30,552 nucleotides of DNA from an uncultured Candidatus Saccharibacteria bacterium (GCA_964349965.1 CAYGIL010000001.1:1-30552); one strand, 5' to 3'. Shown: positions 1,690 through 11,861, counted from the stretch's first letter. A program made the numbers and translations. Notes: generated by a model not told the origin, from the letters alone.

Positions 1690-1696
1690 AACATAA

Positions 1697-1734
1697 AGCC
1701 ACGTGGCGGAGAGGAAATTCTCCACTACGTGGCT
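1697..1734 (-). terminator. Hairpin between convergent recG and a microprotein ORF
   Basis: Minus strand AGCCACGT-agt-GGAGA loop TCTCC-gcc-ACGTGGCT followed by TTATGTTTT. Confidence 0.65.
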
Positions 1735-1763: not shown

Positions 1764-1934
1764 TCAAACGATGTCTTGTGCCTTTTTTTGACGAACTTTG
1801 GCTGCGTCTGCAGCCTTTTCATCATTTTCTTTAGCGGTCTGAGCTTCCTCAGCCGCCAGCTTCGCAACCTGCTCACGACGAATCTCCTCGAGATTCGCCA
1901 GAGCACGACGTATATGTTTTTTATTGATTTTCAC
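1764..1934 (-). CDS. 56-aa charged, helical microprotein (not in ORF track)
   Basis: AAGGAGGGG precedes GTG at 1934. Translation MKINKKHIRRALANLEEIRREQVAKLAAEEAQTAKENDEKAADAAKVRQKKAQDIV, TGA at 1764, then a terminator-like hairpin. Confidence 0.6.
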   Translation of the reverse strand: MKINKKHIRRALANLEEIRREQVAKLAAEEAQTAKENDEKAADAAKVRQKKAQDIV

Positions 1935-2115: not shown

Positions 2116-2670
2116 TTATTTATAACTTGGTTTGATTTCTTCCTGGCCTGACACGTGACTTGAAATACGTGCGAGGGAGTATAGAAGGCTCGAGAGGCGG
2201 TTGAGGTATGCGAGTGTTCCCCCACTTACTGTCACTTTCCCTTCTTCGTGTACTGCAATCACGCGGCGTTCTGCGCGACGCACGAGCGTACGAGCAAAAT
2301 CAAACAGCGCGCCGATCTCGGTCGCACCGCTAATAAAAAATGTTTGAATTGGCGGAAGGATTTTCTCGATACTGTCTACAATATCCTCAACTTTTTTTAT
2401 TTTGTCCTCAGTGATACCCATCTCAGCTCCAGCGACTTCGGCTTGCACGATAAATAAGTTCTGCTGCACTTCGAGCATAAGCTCTGCGCTATTTACTTTT
2501 TCAAAAATATCAAAAGAGAGATCGTGCGTTTTCGCACGGATAATTCCGAGATATGAGTTGAATTCATCGAGTGCGCCGAGTGCTTCGGCAACGTTTGAGC
2601 TTTTGGAGATGCGCTGATCACAGCCGAAGGTCTTGGTCATACCATCATCACCTTTTCTTGTGTAAAGCAT
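2116..2670 (-). CDS. pduO: Cob(I)alamin adenosyltransferase, PduO type
   Basis: YTRKGDDG, ALGALDEFNS, ARTLVRRAERR and YLNRLSSLLY motifs. Confidence 0.92.
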   Translation of the reverse strand: MLYTRKGDDGMTKTFGCDQRISKSSNVAEALGALDEFNSYLGIIRAKTHDLSFDIFEKVNSAELMLEVQQNLFIVQAEVAGAEMGITEDKIKKVEDIVDSIEKILPPIQTFFISGATEIGALFDFARTLVRRAERRVIAVHEEGKVTVSGGTLAYLNRLSSLLYSLARISSHVSGQEEIKPSYK

Positions 2671-2697
2671 AGAAGTATGTCTAAGAAAGAGTTTGAC

Positions 2698-5013
2698 TTA
2701 GATTTCACAGACACCCGAAACACATGCAAACTCTTTGGCACCAGTCGTATTGTCACTTGCTTCGTATTGAGAGAGCTTTGAGAAATCTATTTTCCCGATT
2801 GCCTTTGCCCTTTTTTCGTATTCTTCTTTGCTGATCGCTTCGTACGGTGCGAGCTGATACACGTGCTCAGATCGAGGCAGGAATGACATACCACCAACGA
2901 AATCCCAATTTTCATACACAAAGTTTCCCACCGCGAGCCACTCATCCGGACCGACATAAATCGTCGCTGAAGGATTGTGCTCTACGAAATGCTCTTTGAG
3001 CCTCTTCCATTCTTTCATGAGATCGAGCGCTGAAACTTCATCTTTGAAGATCGCACCTTCGGGAGCCTTTACCGGGAACTCGAGAACAAACGTCGTCGCA
3101 GTTTCTGCTGACTGACCCACTTCTGGCAAGCAAGGTACACCCTGATCCTTTGCCATTTTCATGAGCGTATCAGTATGCGAAATACGAACACGTCGAATAA
3201 AGTATTTTGAAAACCAAGGGTGCATACCGGAACCGACGCCGAGGAGCTGTCCGGAGTTACCGTGCGGCTTTACGCAAGTAATCGCTGTTGATTGATTGAT
3301 ACCGAAACGCTTTGCATACTTTTTATTCACTTCGATCGCTTCGAGACGAAGCATATCGAGGACCTTGTCATCGCGAATAGTCGGATTGTCGTAGTAGCCT
3401 GTAAGTGACACACCGAGGAGTCGCTCCTCTTCACAGTTCTTCTTCCACTCTTTAGAAAGATATCCGAAATTTGTAAGGGTAGACTGATACGTACCGAGGA
3501 GAGTTGCAAGTTCCATCTTTCGCTTGAGCGTCTGTACCGTATCACTCGGACGGATCACGATACTGGTGAGATTACAAAACTGCTTTGAACGCAAATAAAT
3601 TTCACCGCATGGGTTAAGCCCGATTTGACGCTCGTCTTTGATCGCAGCCCAGCGACGTGCAGGCACTTGCTTCTCGAGTCCACCGCGGTTAAATATTCCT
3701 CGCTCACCGGACTTTGATTTTACAAGCGCAGTCCATTCATCCAAAAATTCTTCAGCACTTGGCTTTGCGTGATACACTGCGGAATTATTTGCCATACTAC
3801 GCTGTGGCTCCGTTAGATAAAACTGACCCTTCTTAGCATCACGCATTTCCGAATCTTCGAGCTCTGATACTGAGATAAGTGCACTACGTCGTACGCCTCC
3901 TGCAACTACAATCATACCGATCTGACAGATGAGGTCATGCATGTCGAGGTTGGAAAGTCTCCTGCCTTGCTTGGACAAAATCTTTCTGCGTGCGAAATCC
4001 ATGAGGTCCATCAAGGGCTGCGGACCAGAAGCACGTCCACCCGCAGTTTCGAGTCGAGCACCAGCCGGACGGATCTGTGAATAGTCAAAAGTCACATCAT
4101 GACCACCAAACCACTTTTCGAGTCCATGCACAAATGCATCTGCCCAGCCTTCCTTGCTGTCTTTGACGACATACACACTAGGCTTTTCTTTTACTTGTTT
4201 CTTGATCTGCGGGAATTGCTGTACATTTTCCCATTCCACTGCAAAGCCGAGTCCAGCACCACACATAGATACATACATGATCTCACCTAGGTCCTGAAAC
4301 GAAGTTGGGGCTATATATGAACAGTTGTATGCCCATACGTTTGAATTTCGGCATGCCTTGCCCGCAGACCAGAAAAGCCGCATCGAAGGGCAAATCTCTT
4401 GATTTAATATTGCCTGTCTTAAATCTTCGTACTCCTTCTTTGTGAGCTTGTCACCTAGGTTCTCTCTCATATATTCCATATAGCGGTCTATCGTCTCAAT
4501 CCAAGTTTCCCGCCTACCGAGTTCTGGCACCCAACGAGCATAAAATTGGTAAAAGATATATTCTGCATACGGACTCACAAAATACTTACTACTTTCTTCC
4601 ACTGCCTTACGGACATCTTCACGAACTGGGCCAAAGGTTGCTCGGAGCTCTGAACGCTTGTTTCGGTACAAGATGTACTTCTTGGCAGTCTCAGTATAAT
4701 GCTTCTTCATGAGCTCTTTCTCCACCATATCCTGTACGAGTTCCACTGTAGGCAGAAAAACTGCCTTTTTATGCTTTGTTACTATTTCCTCACGTAGATC
4801 GAGGAGAGACTTAAACACGCTATTTGCCACTACCTGAGACTCACCTTCACCTCCTTCGCTCGTTACCTCAAACGCCTTTCGAACTGCGTTTACAATAATA
4901 TCCAAATCAAATGGTACTACCTCACCTGTACGTTTCCGTATCGACTTTATCTTTGCGAGCTCATTCTTTGAGAATTTTTCGACTGTTTTTAATTTTTGTG
5001 TTTTTGTTTTCAT
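2698..5013 (-). CDS. nrdJ: Class II (adenosylcobalamin-dependent) ribonucleotide reductase with N-terminal ATP-cone
   Basis: ATP-cone IRKRTGEVVPFD; AYNCSY, VAGGVRRSALIS, RSMANNS, NPCGEI, QFCNLT, ERLLGVSLTG; C-terminal CVSGVCEI; PduO gene adjacent and no beta-subunit gene adjacent. Confidence 0.9.
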   Translation of the reverse strand: MKTKTQKLKTVEKFSKNELAKIKSIRKRTGEVVPFDLDIIVNAVRKAFEVTSEGGEGESQVVANSVFKSLLDLREEIVTKHKKAVFLPTVELVQDMVEKELMKKHYTETAKKYILYRNKRSELRATFGPVREDVRKAVEESSKYFVSPYAEYIFYQFYARWVPELGRRETWIETIDRYMEYMRENLGDKLTKKEYEDLRQAILNQEICPSMRLFWSAGKACRNSNVWAYNCSYIAPTSFQDLGEIMYVSMCGAGLGFAVEWENVQQFPQIKKQVKEKPSVYVVKDSKEGWADAFVHGLEKWFGGHDVTFDYSQIRPAGARLETAGGRASGPQPLMDLMDFARRKILSKQGRRLSNLDMHDLICQIGMIVVAGGVRRSALISVSELEDSEMRDAKKGQFYLTEPQRSMANNSAVYHAKPSAEEFLDEWTALVKSKSGERGIFNRGGLEKQVPARRWAAIKDERQIGLNPCGEIYLRSKQFCNLTSIVIRPSDTVQTLKRKMELATLLGTYQSTLTNFGYLSKEWKKNCEEERLLGVSLTGYYDNPTIRDDKVLDMLRLEAIEVNKKYAKRFGINQSTAITCVKPHGNSGQLLGVGSGMHPWFSKYFIRRVRISHTDTLMKMAKDQGVPCLPEVGQSAETATTFVLEFPVKAPEGAIFKDEVSALDLMKEWKRLKEHFVEHNPSATIYVGPDEWLAVGNFVYENWDFVGGMSFLPRSEHVYQLAPYEAISKEEYEKRAKAIGKIDFSKLSQYEASDNTTGAKEFACVSGVCEI

Positions 5014-5018
5014 TTGAT

Positions 5019-5564
5019 TTAGATTGTGTTAGGTTCGAGGTTGATAATAGAAGTAACAGGTTCGGTGCGTCGCTTACGTACAAGGAAATTATAAATTCCC
5101 GGAGACAAGACTGCAGCAAAAGTTACATTCCCAAGTAAATGCATCGCGGTAAACGGTATTTGACCAACAAGTGCAGCCATAAACGGCTGATCAAAGAAAA
5201 GCGGACCAGTCAAAAGCCCTGTGACTCCGTCAAAAAAGAGTGTGGCAACCAATGCAAAGCCCACAAACTGACCCCGTGTAGCCTTTCGATTCTTAAAATA
5301 ACACCCTGAAGCGATACCGATGATTCCGTATGAAAATGAAGTGAGTACTGTCCAGAGCCCTATAGTGCCCGTTACTGCGTCATATATAAGTATGCTCAAA
5401 AATCCGAAAAGAAACCCAGCAAAAGCCCCGTATGCCTTACCAAATGGCATCGCCGCGGTCATAATCGGCTCTATGTTTGGTGCTCGGAAGGGTATAAGCC
5501 GAATAAAAAGACATGCCATCAAGCCTAATACAAAATGAAAATAATTTTTGTTATCTTGTGTCAT
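5019..5564 (-). CDS. ECF transporter S component, CbrT-like (putative cobalamin uptake)
   Basis: Multi-TM protein with RLIPFRAPNIEP...G..AG...G.....YD...G.IGLWT, resembling the CbrT PNVxP...GxGPWT pattern; upstream of nrdJ-pduO. The track ATG at 5618 overlaps a TATAAT box, so ATG 5564 is preferred. Confidence 0.7.
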   Translation of the reverse strand: MTQDNKNYFHFVLGLMACLFIRLIPFRAPNIEPIMTAAMPFGKAYGAFAGFLFGFLSILIYDAVTGTIGLWTVLTSFSYGIIGIASGCYFKNRKATRGQFVGFALVATLFFDGVTGLLTGPLFFDQPFMAALVGQIPFTAMHLLGNVTFAAVLSPGIYNFLVRKRRTEPVTSIINLEPNTI

Positions 5565-5757
5565 AAAAGGTTTTAAAAATTTTAAACTTTCCAAACAGCG
5601 CAAAGGTCGTCCGTTCATTATACAGGAAAAGTAGTAAAAATTAGACAGTGGAAAACTAAAAATTAGAGTAATTTTCGAAGCAGAAAACAGTCCAAAAAAA
5701 ATGTCAAAAAAGTCCGGTTTTCGGCCATATATAATAGCGTATTTTTATATTAACTTG

Positions 5758-5831
5758 TCCGTCCTCTTGGATTCGAACCAAGGACCCCAGAGGTATAAGC
5801 TCTGTGCTCTAACCAACTGAGCTAAGGACGG
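5758..5831 (-). tRNA. tRNA-Ile (anticodon UAU)
   Basis: Cloverleaf CCGTCCT TA GCTC-AGTTGGTTA-GAGC A CAGAG-CTTATAC-CTCTG GGGTC CTTGG-TTCGAAT-CCAAG AGGACGG A; anticodon TAT at 5797-5795; CCA not encoded. Confidence 0.92.
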
Positions 5832-5839
5832 GGTTAGAT

Positions 5840-7756
5840 CTAACTCACTTTCTCTTTTTCCTCTTTCTTTTTTAGCACAATTCCGTGCACAGTCAAAATT
5901 TTCTCGTATTCTTCCTGCTCGAGGGTCTCAACTTCTATAAGTTTTGTAGCGATCGCCTCAAATGCATTTTTGTGTTCACTGATCACTTTTTCTGCAGAAT
6001 TAAACCCATCACGCACGAGTCGGGATACCTCAGCGTCTACTTTCATCGCGATGTCTTCTGAATGTTCTCTCTCGGGTATTTCGGCATACATGCTCCTACC
6101 GCCGTTGTTTGTGAGAGTTATTGGACCGATAACGTCTGACATACCAAACCTCGTTACCATCGCGCGTGCGAGGTTCGTTGCAGCCTGAAGGTCGCTCGAA
6201 GGACCCGTCGTCACGTCACCAAACATAGTTTGCTCGGCAACGTATCCACCGAGAGATACTGCGATATCATCGATAAATTCCTTTTTCGACTGCAATCTGC
6301 GGTCTTCGAGAGGAAGCTTGAGCGTATACCCGCCAGCGCTCCCGCGTGAAATGATCGAAACCTTGTGTACCGGATCTGCGTTTGGAAGTACTGACGCGAC
6401 GAGCGCGTGGCCTGCTTCGTGATATGCAGTGATTTCTTTTTCTTTCTTTGAAAGGAGGTGACTCTTGCGCTCTGGTCCGAGCATGACCTTCTCGATCGCA
6501 CGGATGAGGTCAAACTGAAACACTTTCTTGCGGTTCTCTCGCGCAGCAAGTATCGCACCTTCGTTCATGAGCGAATACAAGTCTGCACCAGAGAATCCCG
6601 GAGTGCGTTCTGCGATAAGTTTTAGATTTACGTCTTCTGCGAGTGGCTTTTTGGTAGCATGAATTTCAAGTATCGCCTCGCGATCTGCACGGTCAGGCAC
6701 ATCAAGCATGACCTTTCGGTCAAAACGTCCCGGACGAACGAGTGCAGGATCAAGCACATCCGGCCTGTTTGTAGCTGCCATCACGATCACTTTATCGTTT
6801 GGCTCAAAGCCATCCATTTCGACAAGTATTTGATTGAGTGTTTGCTCACGTTCGTCGTTCCCTCCGCCAAATCCTCCGCCACGTGTGCGTCCGATCGCGT
6901 CTATCTCATCTACGAATATTATCGCCGGCGCTGCACGTTTGGCCATCTTGAAAAGGTCTCGCACTCTAGACGCCCCGACACCAACGAACATCTCGACAAA
7001 TTCACTACCAGAAAGGTGAAAGAACGGCACACTCGCCTCTCCTGCAACCGCTCGCGCAAGCAAGGTCTTGCCCGTACCCGGTGCACCAGTCAAAATCACA
7101 CCCTTTGGAATTCGTGCTCCGATATCGAGGAATTTCTTTGGACTCTTCAAAAAGTCTACGATCTCTTTGAGTTCCTCTTTTGCTTCTTTACAACCTGCAA
7201 CATCCTTAAAGGTCACGCGGTTATTTTTATCATTAGGGTCCGTAATGCGCGCCTTTGATTGCCCAAAGGAAAGCGCCTGAATACCCGCCCCCTTTACCTG
7301 CCTAGACATATACCAGAAGAAAATCACTATAAAGAGTATTGGAAGTAAAAACGGCAAAACATTCAAAAGCCAAAAACCAAATCCACTTTCATTTTTTATT
7401 TCGATCTCCGTACTAGCGAGTGTCGCTCCCGAAACTTCGTAATTCGAAAGAGTGTCAGAAAGAGACGAACCTGCTTCCTTTTTTGATTTCTTTATTGAGT
7501 CATCTTTATAAGTGATCGTAAGCTCTTCGCCTTCAACAAGGATTTTCTTCACATCGCCTAGAACCACACTCTTGGCAAGCTCTGAGATCGGAATTTCAGG
7601 AATCTTCTTGTTGTCTCCAGAAAAGGCAATATATATCGCAGTAATAAGCATAAAGATAAAAACCGCGCCAACGATACTACTGCCGAATTTTGCACCTTCA
7701 GGCTTCTTTTTAAGCTTACCGTTACTGTCTTTTTTGTTTAGAAATTCAAAGTCCAT
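5840..7756 (-). CDS. ftsH: ATP-dependent zinc metalloprotease FtsH
   Basis: Two TM segments, [37 protein letters not shown]. Start moved to ATG 7756, 6 nt after TG-T-TATAAT. Confidence 0.97.
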
Positions 7757-9068: not shown

Positions 9069-9117
9069 TTTCACAGTGCTACGCACTGCGAAGCTCGTTT
9101 ACTAACGAGCGAAGCAG

Positions 9118-9518
9118 TGGAGATGGGGGGAAATGAGCCCCCGTGCAAGAGTGTGTTGCCATGACGTCTACATATGTAGCACGCTTATTTGTTTTAAGTC
9201 AGGAAATTCTTAAGCGAGCCAAATATTTCCTAACCGAGCTTCTTTACTTTGGAAAGATGTCGAAGCGGTCACCTCTCCTATCCCGATAATATTATGCCCA
9301 CGCGTATATATCGGAAGTCTATACGGTAGACACCAGTTTAGGCTTACGCGAAAACTGGAGGAAAAGCGAAGTCCGCCTTACCGAAGTAAGGAGAAACTGC
9401 TGCTTTTGCTTTAGCAGTCAATTTTGCAATTAACATTTTGAACAAAGTTTTGCGAGATTGTGTTCATACTCGATATGCATCACGAGCAAGTAGACCCCTG
9501 TCTATGCCTTGCATCCCC
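9118..9518 (-). ncRNA. ssrA: tmRNA
   Basis: 5' GGGGATG pairs with 3' CATCTCC-A with the G3-U70 alanine determinant; T-arm GGGGG/CCCCC; starts 4 nt after the smpB stop; candidate tag frame 9427-9344 ends ...VFA-stop. Confidence 0.9.
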
Positions 9519-11249: not shown

Positions 11250-11861
11250 TTATTTACTCACTACTGTGTATTCTGCTACCTTATCTTTCTTAACGAGTGC
11301 GATCAGGTCTGCGAGGAGTTTCTTGGGTTCATTACCGATGACGATCTTTGCATTTGGACGGTTACCCTTGGAAACTATGTCTTTGAGCTCATCACCCATC
11401 TCCCAAGGACCTTCAAAAATGCCGATCGGTTTGCCGTCTTCAAATGCGACTGTAAATTCGTGTACTGTGCCTACACGCCCGCAGCCACAGATAACTGCGT
11501 CACTTGAGCGAGTGAGCAGGAGATCCCTTCCTGGATACCCGAAACCGGTGTATATGATCAGGTCCATATAATCAAGAGGCAGTTTGTACACATCAACGTG
11601 TTCCTTCTCAGATGCGGCAGGAGAAAATCCGATCGAGATACCTCCAGCTTCTTTAACTCCCATAGCTACCCACAAAGGAAAACCAGTGGTTGCCCCGGTA
11701 ACAAGTACGAGACCTTGTGCTGCGATCTCATGTCCAAGCGCTTTTGCCTTATCGTAAGCATCAATACCGCAATGCCCAGTCTCGGCAGCACCTGAAACGC
11801 AGATTTTTATTTGATTATGCCCGTGTTTTTTCGGGAGAGTTTTTAAAATATCAGGATCCAT
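11250..11861 (-). CDS. LOG/SLOG-family Rossmann-fold nucleotide-binding protein
   Basis: ICVSG, LVLVTGATTGFP, GGISIGFSP, GRDLLL..SSDAVI, GRVGTVHEF..A...GKPIG. Confidence 0.85.
   Translation of the reverse strand: MDPDILKTLPKKHGHNQIKICVSGAAETGHCGIDAYDKAKALGHEIAAQGLVLVTGATTGFPLWVAMGVKEAGGISIGFSPAASEKEHVDVYKLPLDYMDLIIYTGFGYPGRDLLLTRSSDAVICGCGRVGTVHEFTVAFEDGKPIGIFEGPWEMGDELKDIVSKGNRPNAKIVIGNEPKKLLADLIALVKKDKVAEYTVVSK

Follow-up and report, generated by a model that had tools for sequence, protein, structure and literature searches.

The window analysed here is a stretch of 30,552 nucleotides from the genome of an uncultured Candidatus Saccharibacteria bacterium (GCA_964349965.1, CAYGIL010000001.1:1-30552). 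Between positions 2116 and 5564, its minus strand carries three intact, co-oriented genes predicted to code for a small membrane protein related to the S components of energy-coupling factor (ECF) transporters (called the carrier hereafter), an NrdJ-type ribonucleotide reductase (RNR) and a PduO-type adenosyltransferase. We present the evidence that this locus probably couples the uptake of vitamin B12 (cobalamin) to the synthesis of DNA precursors. In 5' to 3' order on their strand, the genes are as follows.

5019..5564, minus strand: membrane protein gene (the carrier), ATG at 5564, stop codon at 5019-5021, 181 amino acids (aa)
2698..5013, minus strand: nrdJ, 771 aa
2116..2670, minus strand: pduO-type gene, 184 aa

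These boundaries come from the listing of open reading frames (ORFs) and their translations. The carrier gene and nrdJ are separated by 5 nt (5014-5018), and nrdJ and the pduO-type gene by 27 nt (2671-2697). A previous reading of this DNA, made without database searches (the sequence-only reading), had proposed the same layout and named NrdJ and PduO as the two enzymes. The ORF listing and translations reproduced the former, and matches in Pfam, TIGRFAM and the PDB agreed with the latter.

NrdJ and PduO enzymes

Pfam analyses of the NrdJ protein identified an N-terminal ATP-cone (63.6 bits), the RNR barrel and the RNR-II insertion domain. The protein scores 288 bits against the TIGR02505 model of ribonucleoside triphosphate reductases (RTPR), short of the 340 bits set as equivalog cut-off. 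Among solved structures, its best relative is the monomeric class II RTPR of Lactobacillus leichmannii (1L1L, E=1.1e-44). The NPCGEI motif that contains the thiyl-radical cysteine is aligned between the two proteins, and the NrdJ of the window has a CxxxxC pair at its C-terminus. In contrast, the L. leichmannii enzyme is devoid of the ATP-cone found in the NrdJ of the window. On the basis of these matches, the middle gene is that of an RTPR-like class II (adenosylcobalamin-dependent) RNR, probably of the monomeric type.

The product of the last gene matches PF01923 with 143.2 bits (cut-off 24) over model positions 1-170 of 171, and it also scores over the cut-off of TIGR00636 (123.6 against 108.45 bits). 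The PDB holds 37 solved relatives of the PduO/MMAB type. By homology, the last gene is thus that of a PduO-type ATP:cob(I)alamin adenosyltransferase.

The membrane protein has an S-component fold and is related to CbrT

For the carrier, Pfam returned only weak, overlapping matches, to ECF-ribofla_trS (28 bits), DUF6580 (26.7 bits) and ECF_trnsprt (25-27 bits). The AlphaFold2 model of the carrier, built on 28 relatives, has six helices and a predicted local distance difference test score (pLDDT) of 82.6. Foldseek matched it with a probability of 1.00 to FolT, RibU, PanT and ThiT. VIA-align comparisons gave a Z-score of 15.3 with 4huq_S (root mean square deviation of 2.9, 159 residues aligned), with the model matched over its whole length. 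The Z-scores were 14-15 for RibU and FolT, 10.2 for ECF-CbrT (6fnp_A) and 9.9 for BtuM (8c7p). The predicted fold is therefore settled as that of an ECF S component; the comparison of folds is silent on the class of substrate. A homodimer prediction, made with the idea that solitary S components are oligomers, had a score of 0.00 and bears neither way.

A search of the PDB with the single carrier sequence yielded no match, and CbrT was reached by family profiles only. We built one profile from 28 close relatives (A1) and widened it to 81 sequences (A2) with relatives found by searching 1.8 billion representatives exhaustively (E < 1e-15 among the matches listed). Against the whole PDB, the sole match of profile A1 was 6FNP_A (E=0.0045), whose entry is entitled 'Crystal structure of ECF-CbrT, a cobalamin transporter'. 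Profile A2 matched the same chain with E=6.6e-12 and 48.8 bits over residues 4-155, the next S component having an E-value of 0.14. RibU, ThiT, BioY, FolT, PanT and BtuM were absent from the PDB matches of both profiles. The motifs aligned to CbrT are PN[IV][EQ]P after helix 1, G-x-WT, AY, and F-xxx-H-xx-GN in helix 6. The carrier is thus a divergent relative of CbrT and a probable cobalamin carrier, as judged from sequence homology. The sequence-only reading had called it CbrT-like, and both profiles indeed selected CbrT alone among the solved S components; the outcome set beforehand as contradicting it, a clustering with S components for other vitamins, did not occur in these profile searches.

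We also compared the carrier with DUF6580 (PF20221), a family of S-component-like proteins of the same size. The match covers model positions 6-156 of 162, with a score slightly under the gathering cut-off of 27 bits. Among the 81 family members, 17 match DUF6580 at E<=0.001, and hhalign gave a probability of 34% between the carrier family and a clear DUF6580 member. Because of the sub-cut-off score and this low probability, the family of the window most likely represents a separate branch, nearer to CbrT than DUF6580 is. In other CPR (candidate phyla radiation) families, clear DUF6580 proteins take the place of the carrier beside nrdJ, pduO and DUF4430 genes.

Gene neighbourhood of carrier genes in other genomes

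A pattern scan with one genome per GTDB species returned 296 loci encoding a relative of the carrier, the best 80 of which were analysed. All of them belong to CPR, mostly to Nomurabacteria/Paceibacteria, and they are interrelated, so that the counts given here are not independent trials. The nrdJ gene directly adjoins the carrier gene in 78 of the 80 loci, an arrangement that is far from chance. Downstream sequence of 3.5 kb or more is available for 69 loci, and 63 of these encode an adenosyltransferase. It is of the PduO type in 58 cases and of the CobA/BtuR type in five, and both types occupy the slot after nrdJ. The replacement of PduO by the non-homologous CobA indicates that this slot is selected for function. 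The order carrier, nrdJ, pduO found in the window is the commonest (40/80 loci). The survey of synteny across CPR thus upheld the grouping of the three genes put forward in the sequence-only reading.

Further genes recur in these loci. A small DUF4430 protein is added in 22 of the 80 loci; DUF4430 is the C-terminal domain of transcobalamins (PMC4350170). In addition, 25 loci code for an alpha/alpha-toroid protein of ~630-720 aa with a weak match to a eukaryotic family of cobalamin binders. Adenosylcobalamin (AdoCbl) riboswitches precede the DUF4430 genes within the cassette in two of the ten loci scanned (RF01482; L032, 10325-10468, 55.7 bits, and L076, 7529-7656, 56.6 bits). A distant member of the family in a DPANN archaeon has a DUF4430 gene 2 nt downstream. 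The association between the carrier and B12-related genes spans several families and two domains of life.

In two loci of more distant CPR bacteria (L108 and L109, from genomes G245 and G128, respectively), the position directly upstream of nrdJ is taken by a gene for NrdR (zinc ribbon and ATP-cone) rather than by the carrier gene, and no relative of the carrier family turned up in either genome.

Search for an ECF motor

The sequence-only reading had noted that no ECF ATPase or T-component gene is adjacent to the carrier gene, and this absence was found to hold genome-wide. No EcfT protein (PF02361) was detected over the Pfam cut-off in any of 40 genomes that harbour the cassette, i.e. the source genome and 39 others, among them one from the same genus that is 100% complete and one with an 813-kb main contig. 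The same search did detect EcfT in the phylum, in 3 of the 201 genomes sampled, one of which is G026 (described below). With the EcfA model, the ATPases of the cassette genomes scored at most 151-166 bits, over the generic ATP-binding cassette (ABC) part only, and none of the cassette genomes examined in this manner encodes a full-length EcfA-like ATPase. The absence of EcfT suggests that the carrier probably works as a solitary S component. In every genome searched, the solitary state was the rule for this family.

In contrast, a rare CPR genome of the same class, G026, has ATPase scores of 238-264 bits over the full length of the EcfA model. There, an operon (L113, contig C28, 5305-9521, minus strand) codes for a DUF4430 protein, EcfT, a fused EcfA-A' and an S component. 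The latter bears the CbrT signature and was matched by hhalign to the family of the window with a probability of 94.7%; an nrdJ gene of the type present in the window was not detected in this genome. From its gene content, the operon of G026 is the canonical, motor-coupled version of CbrT within CPR, and it provides a natural comparator for the motor-free family.

The loss of the AxxxA docking motif in helix 1 was considered as a mark of ECF independence and was rejected. The family retains a small-xxx-small pair (G14...C18) in helix 1, which aligns with the G...A pair of the ECF-coupled CPR relative, and the register relative to CbrT is ambiguous.

B12-related functions in the source genome

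The NrdJ of the window is the only RNR found in the source genome, which is 89% complete; neither NrdB nor NrdD was found. Our searches of this genome also returned no B12-binding domain of the MetH/mutase type (PF02310), no QueG, no CobS and no BtuC-type (FecCD) permease. As no CobS, and hence no lower-ligand attachment step, was found, a complete cobamide is presumably imported. The proposal of the sequence-only reading that B12 is captured only to make deoxynucleoside triphosphates (dNTPs) fits these results, since neither another RNR nor another B12 enzyme was found among the families searched in this incomplete genome.

The same reading described the cassette as minimal. In the sense of a complete system this was not borne out, because additional B12-related elements are present on another contig of the source genome. 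Contig C37 (5.9 kb; locus L104, 688-3286, minus strand) harbours a cobalamin riboswitch (RF00174) at 3286..3170, with an above-cut-off score of 39.3 bits. It is followed by a gene for a membrane-anchored DUF4430 protein (~167 aa from an internal Met) and then by a gene for a protein of 628 aa that combines HYR, DUF4430 and alpha/alpha-toroid parts. In its domain content, this pair of proteins resembles a split transcobalamin. Relatives keep the DUF4430 and toroid pair inside the carrier-nrdJ-pduO cassette. With a riboswitch on contig C37 and none at the cassette, B12-responsive control appears to be exerted on the capture proteins, the carrier-nrdJ-pduO genes having a plain promoter.

Comparison with known systems

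Rodionov and co-workers are said to have predicted, in 2009, the nrdJ-cbrS-cbrT-pduO cluster of Lactobacillus delbrueckii and its ECF-CbrT transporter. In that bacterium, cbrT is part of the nrdJ-cbrS-cbrT-pduO cluster (Santos et al. 2018, PMC5997447), and ECF-CbrT transports both cobalamin and cobinamide (PMC5997447; PDB 6FNP). The cassette is therefore not new in kind: the published cluster combines the same three functions, a CbrT-type S component, an RTPR-type class II reductase and PduO. From sequence comparisons, all three proteins of the window have their nearest characterized relatives in the lactobacillal system. The two systems nevertheless differ in several respects. The carrier gene comes first in the window, in contrast with the gene order in L. 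delbrueckii, the NrdJ of the window carries an extra ATP-cone and its carrier is very divergent from CbrT. In addition, L. delbrueckii CbrT needs the ECF module in the published assay, as it did not rescue an E. coli B12-uptake mutant in its absence (PMC5997447), whereas no EcfT and no EcfA/A' module were found in the 40 cassette genomes. In view of this failed rescue, no CbrT-type protein is known to work alone.

BtuM is found almost exclusively in organisms that lack an ECF module, and it rescues E. coli unaided (Rempel et al. 2018, PMC6072759). Like the putative B12 carrier of the window, BtuM of Thiobacillus denitrificans (6FFV/8C7P) is a small membrane protein of the S-component fold from an organism without an ECF module; binding and trapping have been proposed as the driving force of its transport. 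However, profiles A1 and A2 gave no sequence match to BtuM in the PDB even at E<=10, and the two proteins align at the level of the general fold only. BtuM has an invariant, essential cobalt-ligating cysteine (Cys80 in T. denitrificans) with no invariant counterpart in the family of the window: in A1, none of the columns that are invariant or nearly so holds a Cys, and the only common Cys, in helix 1, is replaced in several members. The lack of a sequence match and of an invariant counterpart to this cysteine argues that the carrier does not belong to the BtuM family. The two groups also differ in distribution and context, BtuM being proteobacterial and associated with BtuB, and the family of the window being found in CPR and DPANN in association with NrdJ.

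Solitary BioY is a biotin S component described as mediating uptake without EcfAA'T (Finkenwirth et al. 2013, cited in PMC6072759). It has another substrate, and the solitary state is exceptional for BioY, whereas it is the rule for the family of the window in the genomes searched. We found no paper on the present system in CPR or Patescibacteria, and likewise none on DUF6580.

Proposed mechanism and alternative explanations

We consider it likely that the locus is an operon for the import, activation and use of vitamin B12 in the service of DNA-precursor synthesis, with a carrier that is probably solitary. Most likely, a complete cobamide is bound on the outer side of the membrane by the six-helix protein of the S-component fold, which would then topple, as S components typically do, and thereby bring the cobamide inward. 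PduO would then adenosylate the reduced corrinoid, and the RTPR-like NrdJ would use the resulting adenosylcobalamin to generate deoxyribonucleotides, its ATP-cone probably providing control of activity by dATP and ATP. Like BtuM and solitary BioY, the carrier probably acts without EcfT. The driving force for net uptake would come from tight binding, spontaneous toppling and trapping inside the cell, where the cobamide would be adenosylated and bound by NrdJ. The surface pair encoded under the cobalamin riboswitch on contig C37 probably aids capture from the environment and might hand the cobamide over to the carrier.

Several points weigh against this interpretation. The analyses document the gene identities, the fold, the homology specific to CbrT, the conserved synteny and the lack of any EcfT match, whereas we infer that cobalamin is the substrate from homology and genetic context, and the same applies to its binding and motor-free transport by the carrier. 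The Pfam placement is marginal, with 28 bits for the riboflavin S-component family and 26.7 bits for DUF6580, close to its cut-off of 27. In the structure comparison, FolT, RibU and an L. brevis S component outscore 6fnp_A, and CbrT ranks 22nd. The requirement of L. delbrueckii CbrT for its ECF module also argues against a solitary mode of action. Because the source genome (635 kb) is in 118 contigs and incomplete, the absence of EcfT is established mainly from relatives, which are metagenome-assembled genomes. Finally, in a sample of 301 CPR genomes, about half of those with such an NrdJ have no relative of the carrier, which implies that other uptake routes must exist.

Alternatively, the carrier could be a cobalamin S component that docks onto an unrecognized energizing partner in place of EcfAA'T. 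This partner might be a divergent T-like scaffold, a generic cellular ABC system or host machinery at the contact site of the episymbiont. We regard this explanation as unlikely, while giving it some weight. On its own, the CbrT of L. delbrueckii failed to sustain B12-dependent growth of E. coli (PMC5997447), and each cassette genome has 5-11 ABC ATPase matches of unassigned role. Moreover, the presence of a CbrT-signature S component together with a full ECF module in G026 suggests that the ancestral state was probably motor-dependent. However, no EcfT-like protein over the cut-off was found in the 40 genomes, and no ABC ATPase of the cassette genomes fits the full EcfA model, unlike that of the control genome. 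No further conserved membrane gene accompanies the cassette in the 80 loci, and BtuM and BioY show that proteins of the S-component fold are able to transport alone (PMC6072759).

A function of the carrier as an S component for another small molecule, one required in parallel with dNTP synthesis, appears improbable. Such a molecule might be another vitamin, cobalt, a nucleoside or a base. The substrate specificity of S components is unreadable from the fold, the riboflavin S-component family has the top Pfam score, and folate and riboflavin S components rank first by Z-score among the structural neighbours. Nevertheless, the sequence profiles choose CbrT and no other solved S component. The recurrent neighbours are all B12-specific (NrdJ, PduO/CobA, DUF4430, alpha-toroid proteins and AdoCbl riboswitches), and no other B12 importer (FecCD/BtuC) was found in the source genome, although it needs a B12 enzyme for its dNTPs. 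Still much less probable, to the point that we give it hardly any credence, is that the carrier is an MreD-like or other structural membrane protein found next to nrdJ incidentally. Look-alike clusters in the ESM Atlas are automatically named 'rod shape-determining protein MreD', and a solved MreD aligns with the carrier model with a Z-score of 8.6. That alignment spans 109 residues only, well under those of S components, and Pfam gives no MreD match for the carrier. No mreB or mreC gene is present in the neighbourhood, and the adjacency with nrdJ is maintained in 78 of 80 species. We therefore rejected the MreD identity derived from the automatic Atlas names, on the basis of the genetic context and of the missing Pfam match.

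Promoter, leader and surroundings of the cassette

The following elements were identified upstream of the carrier gene.

5617..5624, minus strand: extended -10-like promoter box TGTATAAT, from direct reading of the sequence; putative promoter
5642..5656, minus strand: weak -35-like region GTTTTCCAC-TGTCTA, positionally homologous to the GTTATCCAC-TTTACA of relatives; putative
5565..5616, minus strand: AT-rich leader of ~45-50 nt, too short for a cobalamin riboswitch

The sequence-only reading had placed a TG-TATAAT box near 5617-5624 and seen no cobalamin riboswitch upstream of the genes. Both observations were confirmed, with TGTATAAT located at 5624..5617 on the minus strand. No cobalamin riboswitch was detected in the window at Rfam gathering scores, and an Rfam search of positions 5500-5900 gave no match even at E<=10. 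In the box, TG directly abuts TATAAT, the spacer base of the canonical TGnTATAAT being absent. A generic sigma-70 promoter scan did not call the site at 5617-5624, which we attribute to its weak -35 region, as TGTCTA agrees with TTTACA at three of six bases only. Of 77 related loci, 39 have TGTATAAT in the 150 nt that precede the homologous gene, where it is often part of TTTACA-17-TGTATAAT. The box of the window and its upstream motif GTTTTCCACTGTCTA share the register of the conserved GTTATCCAC-TTTACA-(17 nt)-TGTATAAT promoter of these relatives, and the spacing in GTTTTCCAC-TGTCTA-(17 nt)-TGTATAAT equals that in relatives such as L006, L008 and L010.

The box also bears on the start codon of the carrier gene. 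A longer ORF begins with an ATG at 5618 that overlaps the -10 box. As homologues are typically 181 aa long with conserved N-termini, 5564 is the likely start rather than 5618. The public gene call for the contig begins later still, giving a protein of 166 aa.

In many relatives (L016, L032, L042 and others), a palindromic element of the type AGTTTCGAAACT-ATGCAACT is present between TGTATAAT and the start codon. The conservation of this leader palindrome suggests that it is a protein operator. The leader of the window carries GCTGTTTGGAAAGTTT, which shares 14 of 20 bases (about 5575-5594) with the leader element of type GCAGTTTCGAAACTATGCAA of some relatives, a similarity that is not significant alone. 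A palindromic operator in this leader was thus rejected, as such a degenerate match is not convincing. In the related locus L032, a gene for an ArsR-type (HTH_5) regulator is found at 11411-11719, after the AdoCbl riboswitch. This type of regulator was discarded as a candidate for the window, because the L032 protein used as a query found nothing in the source genome.

Immediately upstream of the cassette is a tRNA-Ile(UAU) gene (5757-5831, minus strand), and several of the ten relatives scanned have a tRNA gene ~150-1800 nt upstream of the carrier gene. Downstream, the pduO-type gene is followed by a 56-aa Lys/Ala/Glu-rich ORF (1934..1764, minus strand) with a strong AAGGAGG ribosome-binding site. 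We did not include it in the cassette because it has a counterpart in none of the 80 related loci. A GC-rich hairpin with a T-run, at about 1731..1696 (minus strand) downstream of this ORF, could end the transcript. A transfer-messenger RNA (tmRNA) gene is located at 9115-9518 of the window (minus strand; RF00023, 113.6 bits), and relatives L006, L007, L032 and L069 also have one within a few kb of the cassette. No tandem repeats were found in the region.

Biological significance

The type of cassette itself is ordinary, being known from Lactobacillales. What makes it worth following is the putative CbrT-type carrier without a motor, along with the pair resembling a split transcobalamin that is encoded elsewhere in the genome under a riboswitch. 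By extension, the whole branch of CbrT-type S components to which the carrier belongs might be permanently ECF-independent across CPR and into DPANN, importing cobalamin alone and probably fed by split transcobalamin-like surface proteins. We see the chances of this broader proposal as evenly balanced. If true, it would represent the first motor-free vitamin carrier of the CbrT type, and nature would offer, in a single protein family, a contrast with the motor-coupled form that persists in the rare CPR genome G026. From a sister branch in genomes without an ECF module, one would learn how S components come to work unaided, and the paired natural sequences, motor-coupled and motor-free, would serve to find which surfaces changed.

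The source bacterium and hundreds of related species apparently make their DNA precursors with a B12-dependent enzyme only, and they lack B12 synthesis. Their DNA replication would thus depend on corrinoids from a host or from neighbours. This need for corrinoids is a concrete, testable nutritional dependency and may offer a practical hint for the cultivation of these bacteria.

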